Source: Parcubacteria group bacterium (GTDB lineage: Bacteria; Patescibacteriota; Minisyncoccia; Portnoybacterales; UBA2143). From it: DNA of 41,038 bases. Position 1 is the first letter of the stretch. Each line of letters starts with the position of its first letter. The notes under the pieces were generated by a model. The model worked only from the letters and a program-made list of their open reading frames with translations. It did no database searches and had not been told where the DNA came from. Below, piece by piece: positions 11,320-36,354 of the stretch. Both the position numbers and the translations under genes were made by a program. Location: positions 1 through 41,038 of the forward strand of contig JABMPX010000002.1 in assembly GCA_013203625.1 (NCBI GenBank), read 5' to 3'.

Positions 11320-11381
11320 CAAGGACAGTCCTTAAAATGACATCCTTGTGCATAAGGATGTAATTTTAAGGACTGTCCTTG
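11320..11381. repeat. 62-bp nested palindromic element, copy 1
   Basis: CAAGGACAGTCCTTAAAATGACATCCTTGTGCATAAGGATGTAATTTTAAGGACTGTCCTTG; exact reverse complement of 13109-13170. Confidence 0.97.
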
Positions 11382-11386
11382 CAATA

Positions 11387-13099
11387 TCATCCTATTTCTT
11401 TATTGTAGCATGCTTCGCAATAAATAATCTCTTTTCTGTCTGGGGCGTATGTTGTTTGGAAGGTAGTATTGCATCCTTTGTTCATACATTGCCTTTCCCA
11501 TAGTTTCATTGGATTTCTTTGTTTAATCCGTTCTCTATGTCTGCAATCAGGGCAGAGTCGTGGCAAAGAAAAGTTCATCTTTTTATAGAATTTTAGTTCT
11601 GTTGGAATTAGACGGAATACTCCTGAGCCAGCGCAGTCATCAGAAGAACATTGTATTACTTCTTTTAATATAGAGTTATCTACATCTTTTATGCTGTCTG
11701 GAAGGTTTTTTGCTTTAATTGTTGGTTTATATTCGCTTTTAGGTTTGTCATGCCATGTATATCCTTGGTCTATTGCTTGTTGTTTGGTTAAGGGGAAGTA
11801 TTCATTGGCTATTGTTTCATTGTAGGCAAAAGGACTTAATTCAACAGGGAAGAATTCTCCATACTTGTATACTCTGCCATTTTTATCAACATAGGGCATC
11901 TTGTTCATGTGTTCTTTGATTTTAGGAACTAATTCTTCATATTGTTCTTTTGTGTATTGCTTGTTTAGGATGCAGTATTGCTTGTGACGGAGGCCTACGC
12001 ATGCGAAGAGGTTGGAGGAGGAGTGACAGGAAAGACAGTATTCCATATCTCGACAATTTGGCCAACAGTTAAAACAGAAACTTAATTGATTAAGGCCATT
12101 CCCCAAAAGAACGCCTTCATAGATTAGACTAGCTTTTTCTCCCCAACAATAATAATCGTAGCAATCTTGAGTTATGTCCCATATGAGATGGCAATACCTT
12201 AAATTTTCTCCTTTTTTAACTAAATATGAATCTTTAACATTTTTAGAATTATCAATATACTCACCAAACACGTTAACATTCTTACGGCCATGCATGTATT
12301 TAACCGGGAATTTTAAATGAAGTTGTTTGGTTTTATTGTTCAATTCTTGAATGCTTTTATAGGAACCTGTGTTAAACTCTTCAAGTTTTTTGAAATATTC
12401 TTCTTTAGCATACGACTTGTTAAAAATATGATACTTTTTGTGTCTCAAATTTGCACAGCCAAAACAATTAGAACAATTAATGCAATCTTTACAAAAATAA
12501 ATCTCTTGACAGTCCGTACAATGGGAAGAAAAAAATGTTTTATAGCAATTGTTTAGCATAAATCCCTCATAACAAAGCTCTGATCTCCTAAGGTGATGAT
12601 TATCATAACAATTATTGGAACGATCAATGCCATTACCATAAGCACAGTTCTCGGAATGGCCGGCAAAAAACAAAAGATAGCAGTTTTTTAAAAAGGAGGC
12701 TTGCATAGAATAATCACTATTAACTAATCCACTTGACATACGACTAGCCCAAGGCACCTCTCTGCTCAATTTTTTAATCTGTTTTAGGAACGACTTGTTA
12801 AAATCATAATCATGACCATATTTTAAAGGATCCCATTTATCTGACCACCAAATTTCCTGATCATAGATTTTAATCGGCGCTTCTGGAGAAAAAACAGAAA
12901 AGGTTTTCTTCTTGGAAAAATCGCATTTCCTCTTATACAAATTTGTCTCATTCTGAAAAGCAAACCTCCTCTGCATCCTACAATCTGGACAAAAGGTTGG
13001 TTCTGGCACGTCTATCTTCTTGTAAAATTCAAAGTCCTCCGGTTCTATAGTGAACTTGGCTTTGCAGTTTTGGCATATTTTTGTTTTAGATTGAGTCAT
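11387..13099 (-). CDS. Cys-rich zinc-ribbon protein of a type common in Parcubacteria; function unknown
   Basis: Duplicated N- and C-terminal FYKK...CPDCR modules, two internal Cys-periodic modules each ending LRHK.Y.I.NK.Y.KE.Y, and terminal YCEACY; start reassigned to ATG 13099. Confidence 0.8.
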   Translation of the reverse strand: MTQSKTKICQNCKAKFTIEPEDFEFYKKIDVPEPTFCPDCRMQRRFAFQNETNLYKRKCDFSKKKTFSVFSPEAPIKIYDQEIWWSDKWDPLKYGHDYDFNKSFLKQIKKLSREVPWASRMSSGLVNSDYSMQASFLKNCYLLFFAGHSENCAYGNGIDRSNNCYDNHHLRRSELCYEGFMLNNCYKTFFSSHCTDCQEIYFCKDCINCSNCFGCANLRHKKYHIFNKSYAKEEYFKKLEEFNTGSYKSIQELNNKTKQLHLKFPVKYMHGRKNVNVFGEYIDNSKNVKDSYLVKKGENLRYCHLIWDITQDCYDYYCWGEKASLIYEGVLLGNGLNQLSFCFNCWPNCRDMEYCLSCHSSSNLFACVGLRHKQYCILNKQYTKEQYEELVPKIKEHMNKMPYVDKNGRVYKYGEFFPVELSPFAYNETIANEYFPLTKQQAIDQGYTWHDKPKSEYKPTIKAKNLPDSIKDVDNSILKEVIQCSSDDCAGSGVFRLIPTELKFYKKMNFSLPRLCPDCRHRERIKQRNPMKLWERQCMNKGCNTTFQTTYAPDRKEIIYCEACYNKEIG

Positions 13100-13108
13100 G
13101 ATTTGAGT

Positions 13109-13170
13109 CAAGGACAGTCCTTAAAATTACATCCTTATGCACAAGGATGTCATTTTAAGGACTGTCCTTG
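13109..13170. repeat. 62-bp nested palindromic element, copy 2
   Basis: CAAGGACAGTCCTTAAAATTACATCCTTATGCACAAGGATGTCATTTTAAGGACTGTCCTTG. Confidence 0.97.
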
Positions 13171-29787: not shown

Positions 29788-30432
29788 TTATTTTAAATAG
29801 GTTTTCTCAATCACTTTAATTGAATCTTGTAAAATTAATAGATATTGATGCGTTAAAATGTCTAAAACATTTAAACTGTCTGCTCTGATCGTCTTTGTTT
29901 TAGGAATATTTTTGACTGATTGGCTAATTTTCAAATCTGTTTTAGGCAAAACAATTAAAACGCTTTTATTTAAATTCTTTTTGAGTTTTGTTTTTAAATC
30001 ATTAATTATTTCAACCATTAATTTAGTTTTTCTTTTTGTTAATTCTATATTGTCTAATAAAATTATCTCTTTATCTTTTAATTTAGAAGACAAAGTCATT
30101 AATAAAGCTTTTTGCTTCATTTTTTTATTAATTTTCTTACTAAAATTCCTATCTTTGGTTGGCCCAAAAGTTACTCCGCCGCCCCGCCAAATTGGAGAAC
30201 GAATAGAACCATGTCTTGCTCTGCCAGTTCCTTTTTGCCTCCATGGCTTGCGGCCTCCGCCGCGTTTTTCACTCCTGTCTTTAGTATGGGCTATGACCTT
30301 TCGCGAATTAGCCATCTGAGCAACAACTGCTTGATGGACCAAATCCTGATTCATCTTCACGCCAAAAATTTCAGCCGGCAATTTGGCTTTTCCTGTTTCC
30401 TCGCCTTTTTGATTGTATATCTTAATAAGCAT
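29788..30432 (-). CDS. rplD: 50S ribosomal protein uL4
   Basis: GGGRKPWRQKGTGRARHGS. Confidence 0.98.
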   Translation of the reverse strand: MLIKIYNQKGEETGKAKLPAEIFGVKMNQDLVHQAVVAQMANSRKVIAHTKDRSEKRGGGRKPWRQKGTGRARHGSIRSPIWRGGGVTFGPTKDRNFSKKINKKMKQKALLMTLSSKLKDKEIILLDNIELTKRKTKLMVEIINDLKTKLKKNLNKSVLIVLPKTDLKISQSVKNIPKTKTIRADSLNVLDILTHQYLLILQDSIKVIEKTYLK

Positions 30433-30435
30433 AAT

Positions 30436-30454
30436 ATTTTAAGGACTGTCCTTG
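30436..30454. repeat. Single 19-bp arm of the 62-bp element, overlapping the rplC stop
   Basis: ATTTTAAGGACTGTCCTTG, identical to the terminal arm of copies 1 and 2. Confidence 0.9.
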
Positions 30455-31143
30455 ATTTCTTTCTTCCCGGCTTTTTTCTTCTGAGCGTCTGCTTCTTGCT
30501 TTTCTAAATCAGCCATTAGTTTTTCTTCTTTCTCTTCTTTAACAGCTTTAATCTCTTTAGTGACTACTATTTCTAAAAGAGTTCCTTTTCTGCCTGGAAT
30601 TGCTCCTTTAATAGCTATTAAGTTGTTTTCTTTATCTATATCAGCTATTTTCAGTCCTTGAACAACTATTCTATCGTTTCCCATGCGACCAGCCATTTTT
30701 CTTCCTTTTACAACTCTTTCTGGAAAAGCCGAGCCAATTGAACCAGGCGCCCTTTCAGTATGTTTAGTCCCATGAGATGCTGGCATGCCGGCAAATCCAT
30801 GCCGCTTTACCACTCCTTGGAATCCCTTGCCTTTAGAAATGCCTGTTACTTTAACTACTTCACCTGGATTAAATAAAGAAACATTAATTTCATCATTGAT
30901 TTTTAAATCATTTTTCGGAAACTCTTTTAAATAACGGAAAGCTTTGCCTTTCTGCGATTTTTTTATTCTCTTCTCCTTTATTTCTTCAAAGCCAATCTGA
31001 ACAGCAGAATAGCCGTCTTTTTCTTTAGTTTTTATTTGGAGAACAAAACAAGGCCCAGCCTCAATTAAAGTTACTGGGACAACTCGGCCATCTTGATTAA
31101 AAACTTGAGTCATTCCTATTTTTTTTCCTAAAATAAATTTCAT
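30439..31143 (-). CDS. rplC: 50S ribosomal protein uL3
   Basis: GKKIGMTQ, KGKGFQG, PGSIG; charged tail ending KDSP. Confidence 0.98.
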   Translation of the reverse strand: MKFILGKKIGMTQVFNQDGRVVPVTLIEAGPCFVLQIKTKEKDGYSAVQIGFEEIKEKRIKKSQKGKAFRYLKEFPKNDLKINDEINVSLFNPGEVVKVTGISKGKGFQGVVKRHGFAGMPASHGTKHTERAPGSIGSAFPERVVKGRKMAGRMGNDRIVVQGLKIADIDKENNLIAIKGAIPGRKGTLLEIVVTKEIKAVKEEKEEKLMADLEKQEADAQKKKAGKKEIKDSP

Positions 31144-31162
31144 AAAAGTTAATTTGCCAATA

Positions 31163-31189
31163 AAATACCGGGCATTAAACCCGGTATTT
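31163..31189 (-). terminator. Perfect 10-bp hairpin between rpsJ and rplC (terminator/attenuator-like)
   Basis: AAATACCGGG-CATTAAA-CCCGGTATTT; U-rich 3' side on the minus strand. Confidence 0.55.
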
Positions 31190-31226
31190 GATAAGGGATA
31201 TTGCCGAAATAATTAATTAGAAATAA

Positions 31227-31559
31227 TCATATTGTTTTTATTTCAATATCAACACCAGCTGGCAATGTTAAACCCATTAAAGCGTCTATAATTTTTGGGC
31301 CAGGACTGATAATATCAATTAATCGCTTATGAACCCTCATTTCATACTGTTCTCGCGAATCTTTATGGACAAAACTGGAACGATTAATCGTATATTTATG
31401 AATTTCTGTTGGTAAGGGAACCGGACCGCAAATTTTAGCGCCATAACGATCAACCGCCTCAACAATTTGCTTTACTGATTGGTCAATAAGCTTATGATCG
31501 TATGCTTGAATTTTGATACGGATCTTCTGTTTGACTTCCTTTTCTTTTTTAGGTGCCAT
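31227..31559 (-). CDS. rpsJ: 30S ribosomal protein uS10
   Basis: KIRIK..AYDH, GPVPLPT, SREQ.E.R.HKRLIDI. Confidence 0.98.
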
Positions 31560-31579
31560 TGTTAATTAATTCAAAATAA

Positions 31580-32779
31580 TTATTTTATTATTTTAGTCAC
31601 TACTCCAGCGCCAACTGTTTTGCCGCCTTCTCTAAGAGCAAATCTTTGCTTGTTTTCCAAAGCAACTGGAGTTACTAATTTAATTTTTAAATTAACTGTA
31701 TCTCCAGGCATAACCATTTCAGTCCCTTCGGGTAAAGAAACATCTCCAGTAACATCACTCGTTCTAATGAAAAATTGAGGCTTGTACCCGCTAAAGAAAG
31801 GTGTGTGACGTCCGCCTTCTTCTTTGCTTAAGATATATACCTCGCCTTCAAATTCTTGATGAGGAGTAACACTTCCTGGTTTAGTCAAAACCTGACCTCT
31901 TTCAATGTCTTCTCTTTTAGTGCCTCTTAAAAGAATTCCAGTATTATCTCCAGCCTGTCCTTCATCAAGTGATTTATTAAACATTTCTATGCCAGTTACT
32001 ACTGTTTTCTGAGTATCTTTAACGCCAATAATTTCAACTTCATCATTGATCTTAATCTTGCCACGTTCAATTCTTCCAGTAGCAACAGTTCCTCGCCCTT
32101 CTATAGAGAAAACATCCTCAATTGGCATTAAGAAAGGTTCGTCAACTGCTCGAACTGGCTCAGGTATGCTTTCATCAACAGCTTTCATTAACTGCATAAT
32201 TGGTCCGCATTTAGGACAATCTTCTTTGCCGCATCCGCATTCTACAGCCTGTAAAGCAGAACCTCGGATAATAGGAATTTTATCTCCTTCAAATTCATAC
32301 TTGCTTAAAAGTTCTCTAATTTCCTGCTCAACCAAATCAATTAATTCAGAATCATCAACCTGATCAACCTTGTTTAAAAATACAACTAAAGCTGGCAAGC
32401 CAACTTGGCGAGCTAAAAGAATATGTTCTCGCGTTTGAGGCATTGGACCATCTGAAGCAGAAACCACTAAGATTCCTCCATCCATCTGGGCTGCCCCAGT
32501 AATCATATTTTTAATATAGTCAGCATGTCCTGGACAATCAATATGAGCATAATGACGTTTTTCTGTCTCGTACTCAACATGAGCCACAGCAATGGTCAAG
32601 CCACGGGCTTTTTCTTCAGGCGCGTTATCAATATCATCAACGCCTTTATCCTGAGACTTAAAACCAGCTGCTTTTAAACATTTTAAAATAGCCGCTGTTA
32701 ATGTGGTTTTACCATGGTCAACATGACCAATAGTTCCTACATTAAGATGTGGCTTAGTTCTTTCAAATTTCTCAGCCAT
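31580..32779 (-). CDS. tuf: Elongation factor Tu
   Basis: [18 protein letters not shown]; start reassigned to ATG 32779 (MAEKFERTK). Confidence 0.99.
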
Positions 32780-32894
32780 AATAACTATGGGCAATAAACA
32801 ATGGATAACGAACAACAAAAAATAATTGGTCGCTATTAAATGTTTTTACCTTTAATTAACTTATTTTAAATTTTATATGCTTTATGTAAATATA

Positions 32895-32923
32895 AGTTTA
32901 CAAAACATCCTCCACTTAGTCAA
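32895..32923 (-). promoter_or_regulatory. Internal sigma70-type promoter for tuf and the S10 cluster
   Basis: TTGACT-17 bp-TAAACT. Confidence 0.6.
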
Positions 32924-32945
32924 TACCCTGTATCTTTATATTAGC

Positions 32946-33167
32946 TTAAAAAGGCAGATCTTCTACTTTGACCGCTTGATTATCTGTTTCAGTTTCAGGA
33001 ACTTCAATTTGTTTATCCTCTTTTTCTTTCCATTCATTAATGTCTTTATTAACTTCTTCTACTTCATCATCTATTTTCATTACCAAATAAGTCGGTTCAT
33101 TCTCTTCTATTATAATACACTTTCCGCCTTGTTTTTGCAAGATTTTTTTAATAGTTTTCCACAACAT
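32946..33167 (-). CDS. Small protein, 73 aa: Phd/YefM-like N-terminal pattern with an acidic tail ending EDLPF
   Basis: Co-oriented ORF filling the fusA-tuf gap, with a protein-like composition. Confidence 0.75.
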   Translation of the reverse strand: MLWKTIKKILQKQGGKCIIIEENEPTYLVMKIDDEVEEVNKDINEWKEKEDKQIEVPETETDNQAVKVEDLPF

Positions 33168-33195
33168 AATAATTAATAATTTAAAATTTAAAATT

Positions 33196-35322
33196 TTATT
33201 TCTCTTCTCCTATAATCTTCTCTGCCACATTTTTTGGCACTTCAGCATAATGGCCAAATTCCATTGTAAAATTAGCTCGTCCTTGAGTTATTGACCTTAG
33301 CTGTGTTGCATAGCCAAACATGCCAGATAAAGGAACTTGTGCATTAATAACTTTAACTTTATTCATTTCTTCTCCTCTATCTTCCATTTCTTCAATTTTC
33401 CCACGTTTTGAACTTAAATCGCCGATAACATCTCCCATAAATTGTTCTGGAGTAATCACTTGCAGTTTCATAATTGGTTCTAAGAGAATTGGATTAGCTT
33501 GTTTAAATGCTTTCTGCAGAGCAATTGAACCAGCGATTTTAAAAGCTGATTCAGAGGAATCCACATCATGGAAAGATCCGTCATAAAGAGTTGTTTTAAT
33601 ATCGACCACTGGGTACCCAGCTAGAATACCTTTGCTCATTGCCTCTTTAATTCCTTTTTCCACAGCTGGAATGTATTCCTGCGGGATAACTCCTCCTTTA
33701 ATCGCATCAACAAATTCAAATCCTTTGCCTTGTTCCTGTGATTCAACTCGCAGCCAAACATGGCCGTATTGGCCGCGTCCGCCGCTCTGCTTAATATATT
33801 TTCCTTCAGCTTCTGCTGTATCCTTAATTGTTTCTTTATAAGCCACTTGCGGCTGGCCAATGTTCGCTTCTACTTTAAATTCTCTTAACATCCGATCAAC
33901 AAGAACTTCTAAATGCAGTTCTCCCATGCCGGAAATAATTGTTTGTCCTGTTTCTAAGTCTCCCTTGATTTTAAAAGTAGGATCTTCTTCAGCCAGTCGT
34001 TTCAAAGCCAAGCCCATTTTTTCCTGGTCAGCTTTTGTTTTTGGCTCAATAGCAATAGAAATAACTGGTTCTGGAAAAATTATTTTTTCTAAAATAACTG
34101 GATAATCTGGATCAGTTAAGGTATCGCCAGTAGTTGTGCTTTTTAACCCAACTACTGCAACAATATCACCAGCATAAATTTCTTTAATTTCTTCTCGCTT
34201 ATTAGAATGCATTCTTAAAACTCTGCCAACTCTCTCTTTATCCCCTGTACTTGAATTCAAAACATATGAACCGCTTGCTAAGGTACCAGAGTATAATCTT
34301 AAATAAGCCAATTGACCAACAAAAGGATCAGTAGCTACTTTAAAAACTAAAGCGGAAAACGATTCATCATCTTTACTTTCTTTGATTATTTTTTTTGTTT
34401 CGTCTTTTGGATCAAATCCTTGTACAGGAGGCATGTCAATTGGAGACGGCAAATAATCAATAACAGCATCTAATAAAAGCTGAATGCCTTTATTCTTTAA
34501 AGCAGAACCGCAGAAAACAGGAACTAGTTTATAATCAATAACTGCTTTGCGCAAAACTCGTCTTAAATCCTCTTCTTTAATTTCTTTATCATTTAAGTAC
34601 GCTTCTGTCAACTTCTCGTCCTGTTCAGCAATTTTCTCAATTAATTTTTCCCTATAATCCTTACTCTGTTTTTTTAATTCTTCAGGAATTTCTTCTTCAG
34701 TCATGTCTTGGCCATAGTCACCAGCAAATTTATACGCTTTCATTTTAATTAAATCAATTACTCCTTCATGCTTGTCTTCTAATCCAATAGGAATTTGCAT
34801 GGCTATTGCTTTTGGAGTTAGCCGTTCCCAGATTGATTTCAAGCTCGTTTCAAAATTAGCGCCGGTCCTGTCTAATTTATTAATAAGACAGATACGAGGC
34901 ACTTTGAATTTATCTGCCTGATGCCAAACTGTTTCTGATTGCGGTTCTACTCCAGCTACTCCGTCAAAAACAACTACTGCCCCGTCAAGAACCCTTAAGG
35001 AACGCTGGACTTCAACCGTGAAATCAATATGGCCAGGCGTATCAATTATATTAATCTTATGTTCATTCTCTTTGTTAGTCTCTTTAGATAAATATCCCCT
35101 AGGAGTCCAAAAACAAGTTGTGGCTGCAGAAGTAATAGTAATTCCTCGTTCTCTTTCTTGTTCCATCCAGTCCATAATTGCTTCTCCTTCGTGAACTTCG
35201 CCGATTTTATGAGAGATTCCAGTATAAAAAAGAACCCGTTCAGTTACGGTTGTTTTACCGGCGTCTATATGGGCAATAATGCCAATATCTCTTATTTTTT
35301 CAATAGGATACTCTCGTGCCAT
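33196..35322 (-). CDS. fusA: Elongation factor G
   Basis: [26 protein letters not shown]. Confidence 0.99.
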
Positions 35323-35331
35323 ATAATTAAA

Positions 35332-35802
35332 TTACCAAGAAAAGTGAGCAAAGGCTTTATTAGCGTCAGCCATTCTATGCGTATCTTCTTTTTTCTTTAC
35401 GGCTTCGCCTGTGTTTTTAGAAGCATTAAGCAATTCCTCAGCAAGTTTTTGAGCCATTGGCTTTCCTTTTTTTGACCTTGCAATCTGAATAATCCACCGT
35501 ATGGCTAAAGTGGTCTTTCTATCGCCACGCACTTCGCGAGGTATTTGATAATGGGCTCCTCCAACTCTCCGTGATTTCACTTCTACTAATGGAGAAACAT
35601 TTTTGATTGCTTGATCAAACACTTCTAAGGGATCTTTCCCTTTTACAGATTTCTCTATTATTTTAAAAGCATCATAAAATACTCTTTGAGCAACTGATTT
35701 TTTTCCGTCTTTTAATAAATAGTTAATAAACTTAGCAACTAAAGTGCTATTATATTTAGTATCTGGGATAATTGTCTTTTTTATTTTTCTTTTTCTACGC
35801 AT
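35332..35802 (-). CDS. rpsG: 30S ribosomal protein uS7
   Basis: EVKSRRVGGA.YQ, MADANKAFAH. Confidence 0.98.
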   Translation of the reverse strand: MRRKRKIKKTIIPDTKYNSTLVAKFINYLLKDGKKSVAQRVFYDAFKIIEKSVKGKDPLEVFDQAIKNVSPLVEVKSRRVGGAHYQIPREVRGDRKTTLAIRWIIQIARSKKGKPMAQKLAEELLNASKNTGEAVKKKEDTHRMADANKAFAHFSW

Positions 35803-35813
35803 AGTATTAGTTT

Positions 35814-35875
35814 AAAGGACAGTCCTTAAAATTACGTCCTTATTCACAAGGACGTCATTTTAAGGACTGTCCTTT
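35814..35875. repeat. 62-bp nested palindromic element, copy 3, overlapping the rpsL stop
   Basis: AAAGGACAGTCCTTAAAATTACGTCCTTATTCACAAGGACGTCATTTTAAGGACTGTCCTTT; 57/62 identical to copy 2. Confidence 0.95.
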
Positions 35876-36354
35876 GTTTCAGGACTTGAAGATTCTGATT
35901 CAGTTGTCTCAGCTTTTCCCCCTGCTCCTTCTTTTTTAACTGCTCCTTCTTGTTTTTTAGTTCCATAACGGCTTCTTTTCTGCTTGCGTCCATCTACTCC
36001 TTCTGTATCTAAGACCCCTCTAACTACATGATAGCGCACTCCAGGCAAATCTTTAACACGGCCACCGCGAATTAAAACAACTGAATGCTCTTGCAAGTTA
36101 TGCCCTTCGCCAGGAATATATGCAGTTACTTCCATTCCATTAGTCAATCTGACCCTAGCAACTTTCCGTAAGGCCGAGTTTGGTTTTTTAGGAGTCATTG
36201 TGTGTACTTTTAAGCAAACGCCTCGCTTAAAAGGAGAAGGCGTTCTTTTGGGTCTATTTTTTAATGAATTAAAACTTTTCCAAAGGGCTGGTGCTTTTGG
36301 TTTTTTCTTTGAAATTTTTCTTGGTTTTTTAATTAATTGATGAATAGTCGGCAT
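35860..36354 (-). CDS. rpsL: 30S ribosomal protein uS12 with a C-terminal extension
   Basis: [20 protein letters not shown]; tail ending KDSP. Confidence 0.98.

Follow-up and report, generated by a model that had tools for sequence, protein, structure and literature searches.

Repetitive extragenic palindromic (REP) sequences, as known from Escherichia coli and Pseudomonas, are short imperfect palindromes that are present in many copies and mostly outside genes. Typically, one end of the palindrome bears a conserved tetranucleotide, GTAG or CGTC (PMC3733652; PMC6006769), and atypical REPs without this tetranucleotide have also been described (PMC6006769). Inverted pairs of REPs that fold into one hairpin are called REPINs, with singlets occurring next to doublets, and 14 of 1,067 16-mers overlap genes in P. 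fluorescens SBW25 according to the account in PMC3116915. REPs are associated with REP-associated tyrosine transposases (RAYTs), and the term 'REPtron' is used for a single-copy HUH/Y1 transposase gene in a conserved neighbourhood with matching palindromes on its flanks (PMC6006769). We studied a palindromic repeat in a 41,038-nucleotide stretch (contig JABMPX010000002.1; hereafter the window) from a Parcubacteria group bacterium of the Patescibacteria/Candidate Phyla Radiation (CPR) lineage, a host unlike those of the known REP/REPIN systems. The window is contig C18 of a 470-kb assembly in 22 contigs (GCA_013203625.1, here G000; 33% G+C, 89% complete). In this window an arm of the repeat forms the identical ends, KDSP and a stop codon, of the genes for the ribosomal proteins uS12 and uL3. 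The repeat is probably an element of the REP/REPIN type and the KDSP ends a by-product of tolerated insertion. Our literature search, which left most subscription journals and supplements outside its reach, returned no report of REP, REPIN or RAYT for Patescibacteria.

The last 15 bases of the uS12 and uL3 genes are the same (AAGGACAGTCCTTAA, read as AAG GAC AGT CCT TAA) and are translated in a common frame to KDSP and a stop. An earlier note on this DNA had reported these identical ends and attributed them to one arm in one frame, which a direct reading of both sites confirmed. The features at the two sites are as follows:

35860-36354, reverse strand: rpsL (uS12), 164 amino acids with a charged C-terminal tail (PF00164, E = 2.7e-38)
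35860-35874, reverse strand: arm read as the KDSP codons and the TAA stop of rpsL
35815-35874: complete REPIN-like palindrome between rpsL and rpsG, in the order arm AAGGACAGTCCTT, AAAAT, inner hairpin, ATTTT, arm AAGGACTGTCCTT
35332-35802, reverse strand: uS7-like gene (rpsG), assigned from position and sequence, with its ATG 12 nt past the palindrome
30439-31143, reverse strand: rplC (uL3), 234 amino acids with a charged tail, ending in GKKEIKDSP and the stop (PF00297, E = 1.1e-16)
30439-30453, reverse strand: the 15-mer giving KDSP and TAA of rplC
30436-30453, reverse strand: solo REP arm (30441-30453) with AAAAT, supplying the KDSP and TAA of rplC
30432 (start): rplD-like ORF (open reading frame), the next gene after rplC

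With at most one mismatch the 15-mer occurs seven times in the window and in none of 100 dinucleotide-preserving shuffles. At rpsL it forms the first arm of a palindrome that is complete, 60 nt long and fills the rpsL-rpsG spacer. At rplC only the coding arm is left, as had been noticed before: a single 13-nt arm with AAAAT is followed directly by ATT and the ATG of the next gene. The long charged tails that the earlier note had seen in front of KDSP are real as well, and uS12 and uL3 have tails of a similar kind in five relatives, with or without an arm. Because relatives without the arm also have these tails, they predate the repeat and do not derive from it. Several ribosomal proteins of CPR bacteria, including uS12, are described as larger (PMC9297842).

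The arm is a 13-nt imperfect palindrome, AAGGAC-A/T-GTCCTT, and in a doublet two arms stand inverted around a short inner hairpin. A full copy consists of AAGGACAGTCCTT, AAAAT, (G/T)AC(A/G)TCCTT, a loop of 4-6 nt, AAGGA(T/C)GT(A/C), ATTTT and AAGGACTGTCCTT, the two arms standing at a fixed spacing of 47 nt. The complete element is a near-perfect palindrome of 60 nt that folds as a single hairpin of about 27 pairs. The folding energy of the rpsL-rpsG copy was -41.4 kcal/mol (z = -10.9) on the mRNA-sense strand and -41.6 kcal/mol on the other strand, and full copies generally gave -41.4 to -42 kcal/mol (z of about -10 to -11) on either strand. The fold of the solo arm at rplC was not significant (-3.1 kcal/mol, z = +0.75). 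In an alignment of 16 copies from four genomes, 3 of the 25 stem pairs were altered on both sides yet remained paired (columns 14/48 in three copies, 17/45 in one copy and 22/40 in six copies); examples are ACATCC/GGATGT versus ACGTCC/GGACGT and AAAAT/ATTTT versus GAAAT/ATTTC.

When the sense strand of the rpsL copy is translated, frame 0 gives KDSP and a stop, frame 2 gives GQSLK and a stop, and frame 1 stops after nine codons. These stops (4, 5 and 9 codons) were computed for the common subfamily in the rpsL sense orientation; for the reverse orientation, inspection by eye suggests that one of the frames may stay open for longer. The copy at the peptide deformylase gene (def) belongs to a subfamily in which G replaces A after CCTT, so that the arm is followed by GAAAT and the stop becomes TGA instead of TAA; frame 1 of a G-subfamily copy is open. 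The earlier statement that the arm brings its own TAA is thus correct for rpsL and rplC and not for the def copy. A scan of the whole window against Rfam 15 yielded no match at gathering score. Eight terminator-like sites were predicted between 30000 and 36500, none of them coincident with a copy, and the stem of the rpsL palindrome is followed by TTTAAAC or TGTTTCA, not by the U tract that accompanies the GC-rich stem-loop of an intrinsic terminator. By these features the copies do not match an intrinsic (Rho-independent) terminator.

The assembly contains 27 exact arms, compared to a mean of 0.4 palindromic AAGG-N5-CCTT 13-mers in composition shuffles. They form about ten full doublets and about ten solo or decayed copies, located between co-directional, divergent and convergent genes. 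Most lie in gaps between ORFs, yet four arms provide gene ends and one doublet is in frame within a gene, which brings the number of arms touching coding sequence to 6 of 27 (the four gene ends and both arms of the copy in wecG). This overlap is far larger than the 14 of 1,067 16-mers of SBW25. No target-site rule was found and no clear duplication was seen at the copies. By eye, the two bases outside the arms of G000 are AT in 7 cases out of 18 arm ends, and in the congener G002 the arm is often preceded by TTA. Among 506 ORFs of at least 60 amino acids, obtained with our own crude ORF caller, four end in KDSP against 0.005 expected from amino-acid composition, and these four C-terminal occurrences are the only ones in the set. 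Such a count had been proposed in the earlier note as a check. The carriers are uS12, uL3, peptide deformylase (Def, PF01327) and a LytR-CpsA-Psr (LCP) protein (PF03816).

The copy in wecG (G000:C14:9747-9806; L102:4248-4307) is read through: its 60 nt are translated as 20 residues, IRTVLEMTSFCIRTSFQGLSL, inside a WecG/TagA glycosyltransferase that matches PF03808 (E = 1.2e-55) in one uninterrupted stretch spanning the insert. The insert is located in a linker whose length varies among relatives, and the frame used corresponds to the open frame 1 of a G-subfamily copy. In this respect the repeat behaves like the Rickettsia palindromic elements (RPEs) and like intragenic ERIC/BOX miniature inverted-repeat transposable elements, which are fused in frame and translated as part of host proteins (PMC10969869). 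The likeness is one of behaviour only, without sequence relation, and RPEs differ in being about 150 bp long and usually encoding an internal peptide, whereas here usually the last few codons and the stop are replaced. We know of no transposase linked to RPEs.

An arm followed by RAAAT is present in 6 of the 41 genomes compared (G000 and 40 relatives). The exact arm described above (type A) was counted 27 times in G000, 47 times in G002, 3 times in the congener G001 and 29 times in G011. A second arm of the same layout (type B, AAGGCCGTGCCTT) has, with at most one mismatch, 24 copies in G001, 13 in G002 and 2 in G000. When one genome per species was scanned, 33 of 35 matching stretches came from metagenome-assembled genome records of uncultured Candidatus Saccharibacteria or Patescibacteria; the remaining two, in unrelated records, are at about chance level by a rough estimate.

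Comparison of orthologous sites showed that the gene ends change with the repeat. The rpsL genes of G001 and G002 end in KEQS (AAA GAA CAG TCC TAA), a diverged copy in another frame whose stop is made by a T-to-A change within the arm. A solo arm lies 8 nt past the rpsL stop in G011, and no element is present between rpsL and rpsG in G010 and G014. The rplC gene of G001 ends in KKKDAK followed by TAAAATATG; no arm was found at rplC in G001, G010, G011 and G014, and uL3 lacks KDSP in all five relatives examined. The uL3 protein of G002 has a different, non-charged and unrelated tail (VNRRPRFKMPNFDVSALSQK), after which about 90 nt of another repeat follow (L019). A repeat like the insert between rplC and rplD of G002 was also seen to be read through inside wecG of the same genome (L109).

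The def-fmt junction of G000 holds a type A doublet, with Def ending in KDSP and TGA, and that of G001 a type B doublet, with Def ending in KAVP and TAA; the two repeats start at the same codon distance from a conserved D(H/Y). G002 shows decayed repeats after VDYR and the stop, G011 has arm-like palindromes past the stop, and no repeat copy is present in G014 and G005. The LCP protein ends in AIKDSP in G000 and G002 and in AIKE (AAG GAA TAA), without an arm, in G001, and the LCP genes of G014, G011 and G005 stop at about the same place, also without an arm. Species thus differ in whether the repeat is present at rplC, at the LCP gene and at def-fmt, and the same gene ends attract different repeats in sister species. 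The reverse situation is found for a 264-amino-acid ORF (G000:C14:10458-11252), which ends in VFVIIN 2 nt before a solo arm, with an orthologue in G001 that reads the arm and ends in VFVIIKDSP. In G001 the wecG site carries a type B repeat that is read in frame as far as the contig extends, and in G002 it carries another repeat, which is read through. The wecG orthologue of G011 (L105) ends in SVFQGLSL, resembling the arm in another frame (TTT CAA GGA CTG TCC TT), and this looks like a further C-terminus derived from a repeat.

The family model for RAYTs (NF047646) matched 24 of the 41 genomes at E <= 0.001. Its curated cut-off of 80 bits was exceeded in five genomes, including G001 (84.6 bits) and G014 (85.7 bits), and the G002 protein scored 76.6 bits on this model compared to 16.4 bits on the IS200 transposase model NF033573. 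All 12 RAYT-like ORFs inspected have the HUH (H-x-H) and Y..NP motifs. These ORFs occupy one of two conserved neighbourhoods (judged by eye from the starts downstream), and lineage-specific palindromic arms flank both ends of the genes. In G005, the RAYT gene is flanked by AAGGACTGTCCT, the core of the type A arm studied here; across this genome the 12-mer is matched 22 times in forward and 28 times in reverse orientation. Five of the 12 RAYT genes end in their own flanking arm in the KDSP frame; their last four codons and stop are:

G014: AAG GAC GTT CCT TAA, giving KDVP and the stop
G002: AAG GCC GTG CCT TAA, giving KAVP and the stop
G005: AAG GAC TGT CCT TAA, giving KDCP and the stop
G019 and G006: RDCP and EAAP, each followed by the stop

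In the RAYT gene of G001 the stop in the arm has been changed to GAA, and the ORF continues for five codons into the repeat. Since these five RAYT genes end inside the arm, the arm brings a stop codon also where it flanks its own transposase gene. The RAYT of G031 stands next to a REP of the GTAG type. A second, weaker Y1-transposase-like gene of G002 (L055, G002:C6:9000-13000) has a palindrome, GAGACGT..ACGTCTC, just upstream and within its own coding sequence. As its palindrome (GAGACG...CGTCTC) differs, this gene was set aside as unrelated when considered as a partner of the type A arm.

Directly observed are the existence of the repeat family and of its hairpin, its overlaps with genes, the association with RAYT genes in relatives and the turnover of the tails. 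With REPs and REPINs the repeat shares the short imperfect palindromes in many copies, the inverted pairs that fold into one hairpin, the singlets next to doublets, and the occurrence of several repeat types within one genus. The single-copy HUH/Y1 transposase genes of the relatives, with matching flanking palindromes and a conserved neighbourhood, correspond to REPtrons as described. The arm of G002 further occurs in longer mosaics with other conserved modules and additional AAGGA...TCCTT hairpins, which recalls the bacterial interspersed mosaic elements (BIMEs) of E. coli that PMC6006769 names, although the modules are unrelated to those of BIMEs in sequence. The differences are that the arms begin with AAGG, are flanked by TTTT/AAAAT and have no GTAG or CGTC foot; that they are only 13 nt long; that the doublet has a third, inner hairpin; that no RAYT was found in the G000 assembly itself; and that in relatives several RAYT genes have their last codons and stop within the arm that flanks them. 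Other bacteria have provided good descriptions of REP/REPIN-RAYT systems. What is unusual here is that arms carry the stop codon of the transposase gene itself, that the ends of essential genes are frequently rewritten, and that different repeat types stand at the same codon in sister species. The kinship of the repeat to REP/REPIN sequences tied to RAYT transposases had not been recognised in the earlier note.

A tolerated insertion probably accounts for the shared protein ends, as follows. A RAYT would mobilise the elements, now or in the recent past; as no RAYT gene was found in G000, mobilisation in this genome is inferred from its relatives. Gaps between co-directional genes in G000 have a median of 12 nt, and 65% of them are 30 nt or shorter (own ORF calls). 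Because of this short median gap, a 60-nt insert would have almost no neutral room in such a compact genome and could hardly avoid a gene boundary. Surviving copies lie against gene boundaries, some of them over dispensable, disordered 3' tails, and the 3' tail of a protein with a disordered end would be the least harmful landing place. Because the arm reads AAG GAC AGT CCT TAA (or TGA), an ORF that runs into it in one frame stops after four codons; in the other two frames it stops after five and nine codons in the copy and orientation translated. The host protein would thus be barely altered and the insertion tolerated. An arm landing in the KDSP frame at the end of another gene would supply K-D/A-x-P and a stop, and KDSP on uS12, uL3, Def and the LCP protein would be the footprint of insertion and not a selected peptide. 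The copy at rplC would then be a REP singlet, left over from a doublet or simply an arm on its own. The movement of copies by a RAYT, the tolerance at tails as the reason for their placement, and the short extension as the reason for the shared frame are the inferred parts of this account. The earlier proposal that the element inserts at or replaces stop codons, and is tolerated by virtue of its own stop, stands in outline, given the stops of the arm and the native ends seen in relatives such as G001. It does not hold as a statement about targeting, with most copies beside genes and one in frame inside a gene; since the majority of copies overlap no stop codon, an element homing to stop codons was rejected.

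A number of observations weigh against the tolerated insertion of a RAYT-mobilised repeat. G000 has no match to NF047646 or PF01797 in its 89% complete assembly, and tblastn of this genome with the G002 RAYT and its two neighbouring genes gave no match; since the neighbours are missing as well, an assembly gap is suspected. The RAYT genes of the congeners G001 and G002 are flanked by type B and not by type A arms, the pairing of a RAYT with the type A arm was seen only in the more distant G005, and G011 has 29 type A arms and no RAYT match. All four overlaps in G000 share one frame, which would happen about once in 27 times if frames were free; purifying selection for the shortest extension may explain this. 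Four public DNA runs provided no empty site, no excision and no joint that removes a copy, and their contigs mostly stop at the repeat. In the LCP gene of G002, KDSP is kept through a synonymous change of GAC to GAT that weakens the palindrome, with the rest of the copy decayed, which is what weak constraint on the tail at the protein level would look like. Finally, the element recurs between rpsL and rpsG, as a copy or relic in the three genomes of the genus (G000, G001 and G002) and in G011 as a solo arm, so that it may instead have a function there. The occupation of def-fmt in G000, G001, G002 and G011, the high stability of the rpsL-rpsG hairpin on the mRNA-sense strand (-41.4 kcal/mol, z = -10.9) and an RNase III encoded in the genome (242 bits, over the cut-off) likewise allow for such a role.

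These last observations favour an exapted RNA element, in which the 27-bp hairpin enclosing the rpsL stop, 12 nt before the rpsG start, would tune expression of the operon by slowing termination or re-initiation, blocking 3' exonucleases or offering a cleavage site to RNase III, with KDSP as the price of a hairpin placed exactly at the stop. The changes on both sides that keep the stem paired fit this idea too, and RNase R and PNPase are reported to act on REP-containing mRNAs and REPs to affect mRNA decay (PMC12320835). On the other hand, the solo arm at rplC yields the same tail without a significant fold, copies between divergent and convergent genes and inside coding sequence follow no single placement rule, and G010 and G014 do without the element at rpsL-rpsG. 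The symmetry of the palindrome on both strands is what a DNA-level repeat predicts, and none of the eight terminator-like sites between 30000 and 36500 coincides with a copy. We consider an exapted RNA element unlikely. In E. coli, REPs close to stop codons were reported by Liang, Rudd and Deutscher in 2015 to reduce translation of the upstream gene; here too a stable hairpin is found at the termination codon or a few nucleotides from it, with the difference that the stop lies within the stem. A bolder combination, for which we see a slightly better though still small chance, is that the REP arm is a portable 'K-D-x-P-stop' cassette, derived from or co-evolving with the 3' end of the RAYT gene, that was recruited at the ends of the essential genes rpsL, rplC and def, and that the hairpin enclosing the stop is a selected control point. 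It might act in termination, in coupling to the next cistron or in RNase III processing, and the repeat type active in a given species would overwrite the copies at such sites, as with types A and B at the same def codon.

Other explanations have less in their favour. The 6-1-6 palindrome TTAAGGAC-N-GTCCTTAA could be an operator bound by a dimeric protein, its copies marking a regulon, which would agree with the exact dyad symmetry, the fixed 47-nt spacing of the arm pair and the position of copies upstream of several genes. Copies at 3' ends, between convergent genes and within coding sequence are not where operators are expected, numbers of 3, 27 and 47 in congeners and the same architecture around the RAYT genes of relatives do not suit a regulon, and dyad half-sites do not require the observed covariation of the stem, so that operator sites are improbable. 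A domesticated peptide tag, the second possibility raised in the earlier note, would make the C-terminal KDSP a selected signal, for instance for degradation, sorting or assembly, that was spread by the repeat. The tail shared by four proteins against 0.005 expected, its single frame in all four and the KDSP retained in the LCP protein of G002 are as such a tag predicts. The tag was nevertheless not supported and appears very improbable because the tail follows the local repeat type or frame (Def of G001 ends in KAVP, uS12 of G001 and G002 in KEQS), comes and goes, and is borne by proteins without a common function, location or fate (two ribosomal proteins, a deformylase and a cell-envelope LCP protein). 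It is missing from uL3 of all five relatives and from the LCP protein of G001, G005, G011 and G014, and an ORF of G001 has KDSP where its orthologue in G000 stops just before the arm. An assembly or binning artefact that joined repeats wrongly to gene ends can be almost dismissed. Contigs from public runs often break at the repeat (in run X2, pieces end or start at 35846-35875) and several G000 contigs terminate in copies, but a gapless 259-nt contig of the independent run X8 spans the rplC arm unchanged (30375-30633), two X2 contigs overlap across the rpsL palindrome, and the same overlaps recur in separately assembled relatives. In a contig of run X3, 103 letters replace 31 letters of the window at the rplC-rplD junction (30436-30466), with 46 other letters differing over 2,059.

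If the KDSP ends are indeed left by a tolerated REP/REPIN-type repeat, a known process explains the odd coincidence of two ribosomal proteins with an identical end, and the range of REP/REPIN-RAYT systems extends to an ultra-small, uncultured bacterial lineage. Where almost no intergenic room is left, such repeats would then settle on the ends of genes, replace the final codons and stop of essential ones, and even be read through within an enzyme. Genome annotation should regard small ORFs and C-termini close to these repeats as derived from them, and sister species with different repeat types at one codon offer a tractable case for the turnover of REPIN populations. Were the bolder proposal of a recruited stop cassette true, the repeat population would be a maintained partner of gene expression and not litter.

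Copies of the repeat also surround a gene for a Cys-rich protein in the window:

11321-11380: full REPIN copy, with the stop of the Cys-rich gene on one side and a recO-like gene on the other
11387-13111, reverse strand: Cys-rich protein of 574 amino acids, its gene bracketed by two REPIN copies; no Pfam or NCBIfam family
13110-13169: full REPIN copy, the exact reverse complement of the copy at 11321, situated upstream of the Cys-rich gene, about 10 nt from its likely ATG

About nine copies in G000 adjoin members of this multi-copy family of proteins of about 575 amino acids. At least six members (about 480-590 amino acids, with many CxxC motifs) were found in the window and on contigs C5, C11, C19 and C20 of G000; their genes stand in arrays with the palindromic repeat between members, and contigs break there. 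The nearest Atlas clusters of the protein are unnamed or 'putative zinc-binding' and are commonest in Minisyncoccota. A short Cys-rich insert is also present in the EF-Tu ORF (31580-32818, reverse strand).

Further repeat variants were observed elsewhere in G000. Two type B arms (AAGGCCGTGCC) enclose about 150 nt of structured-looking sequence at G000:C16:4121-4285; a similar sequence recurs beside the RAYT locus and in the repeat mosaics of G002, and this may represent a small RNA or a further module of the repeats. A third variant, alike in layout and different in letters, is located at G000:C14:16863-16922 (arms AAGGTCAGACCTT, inner hairpin CACCCTTTTGTAAAAGGGT), and a solo arm of this variant is present at C19:15375.

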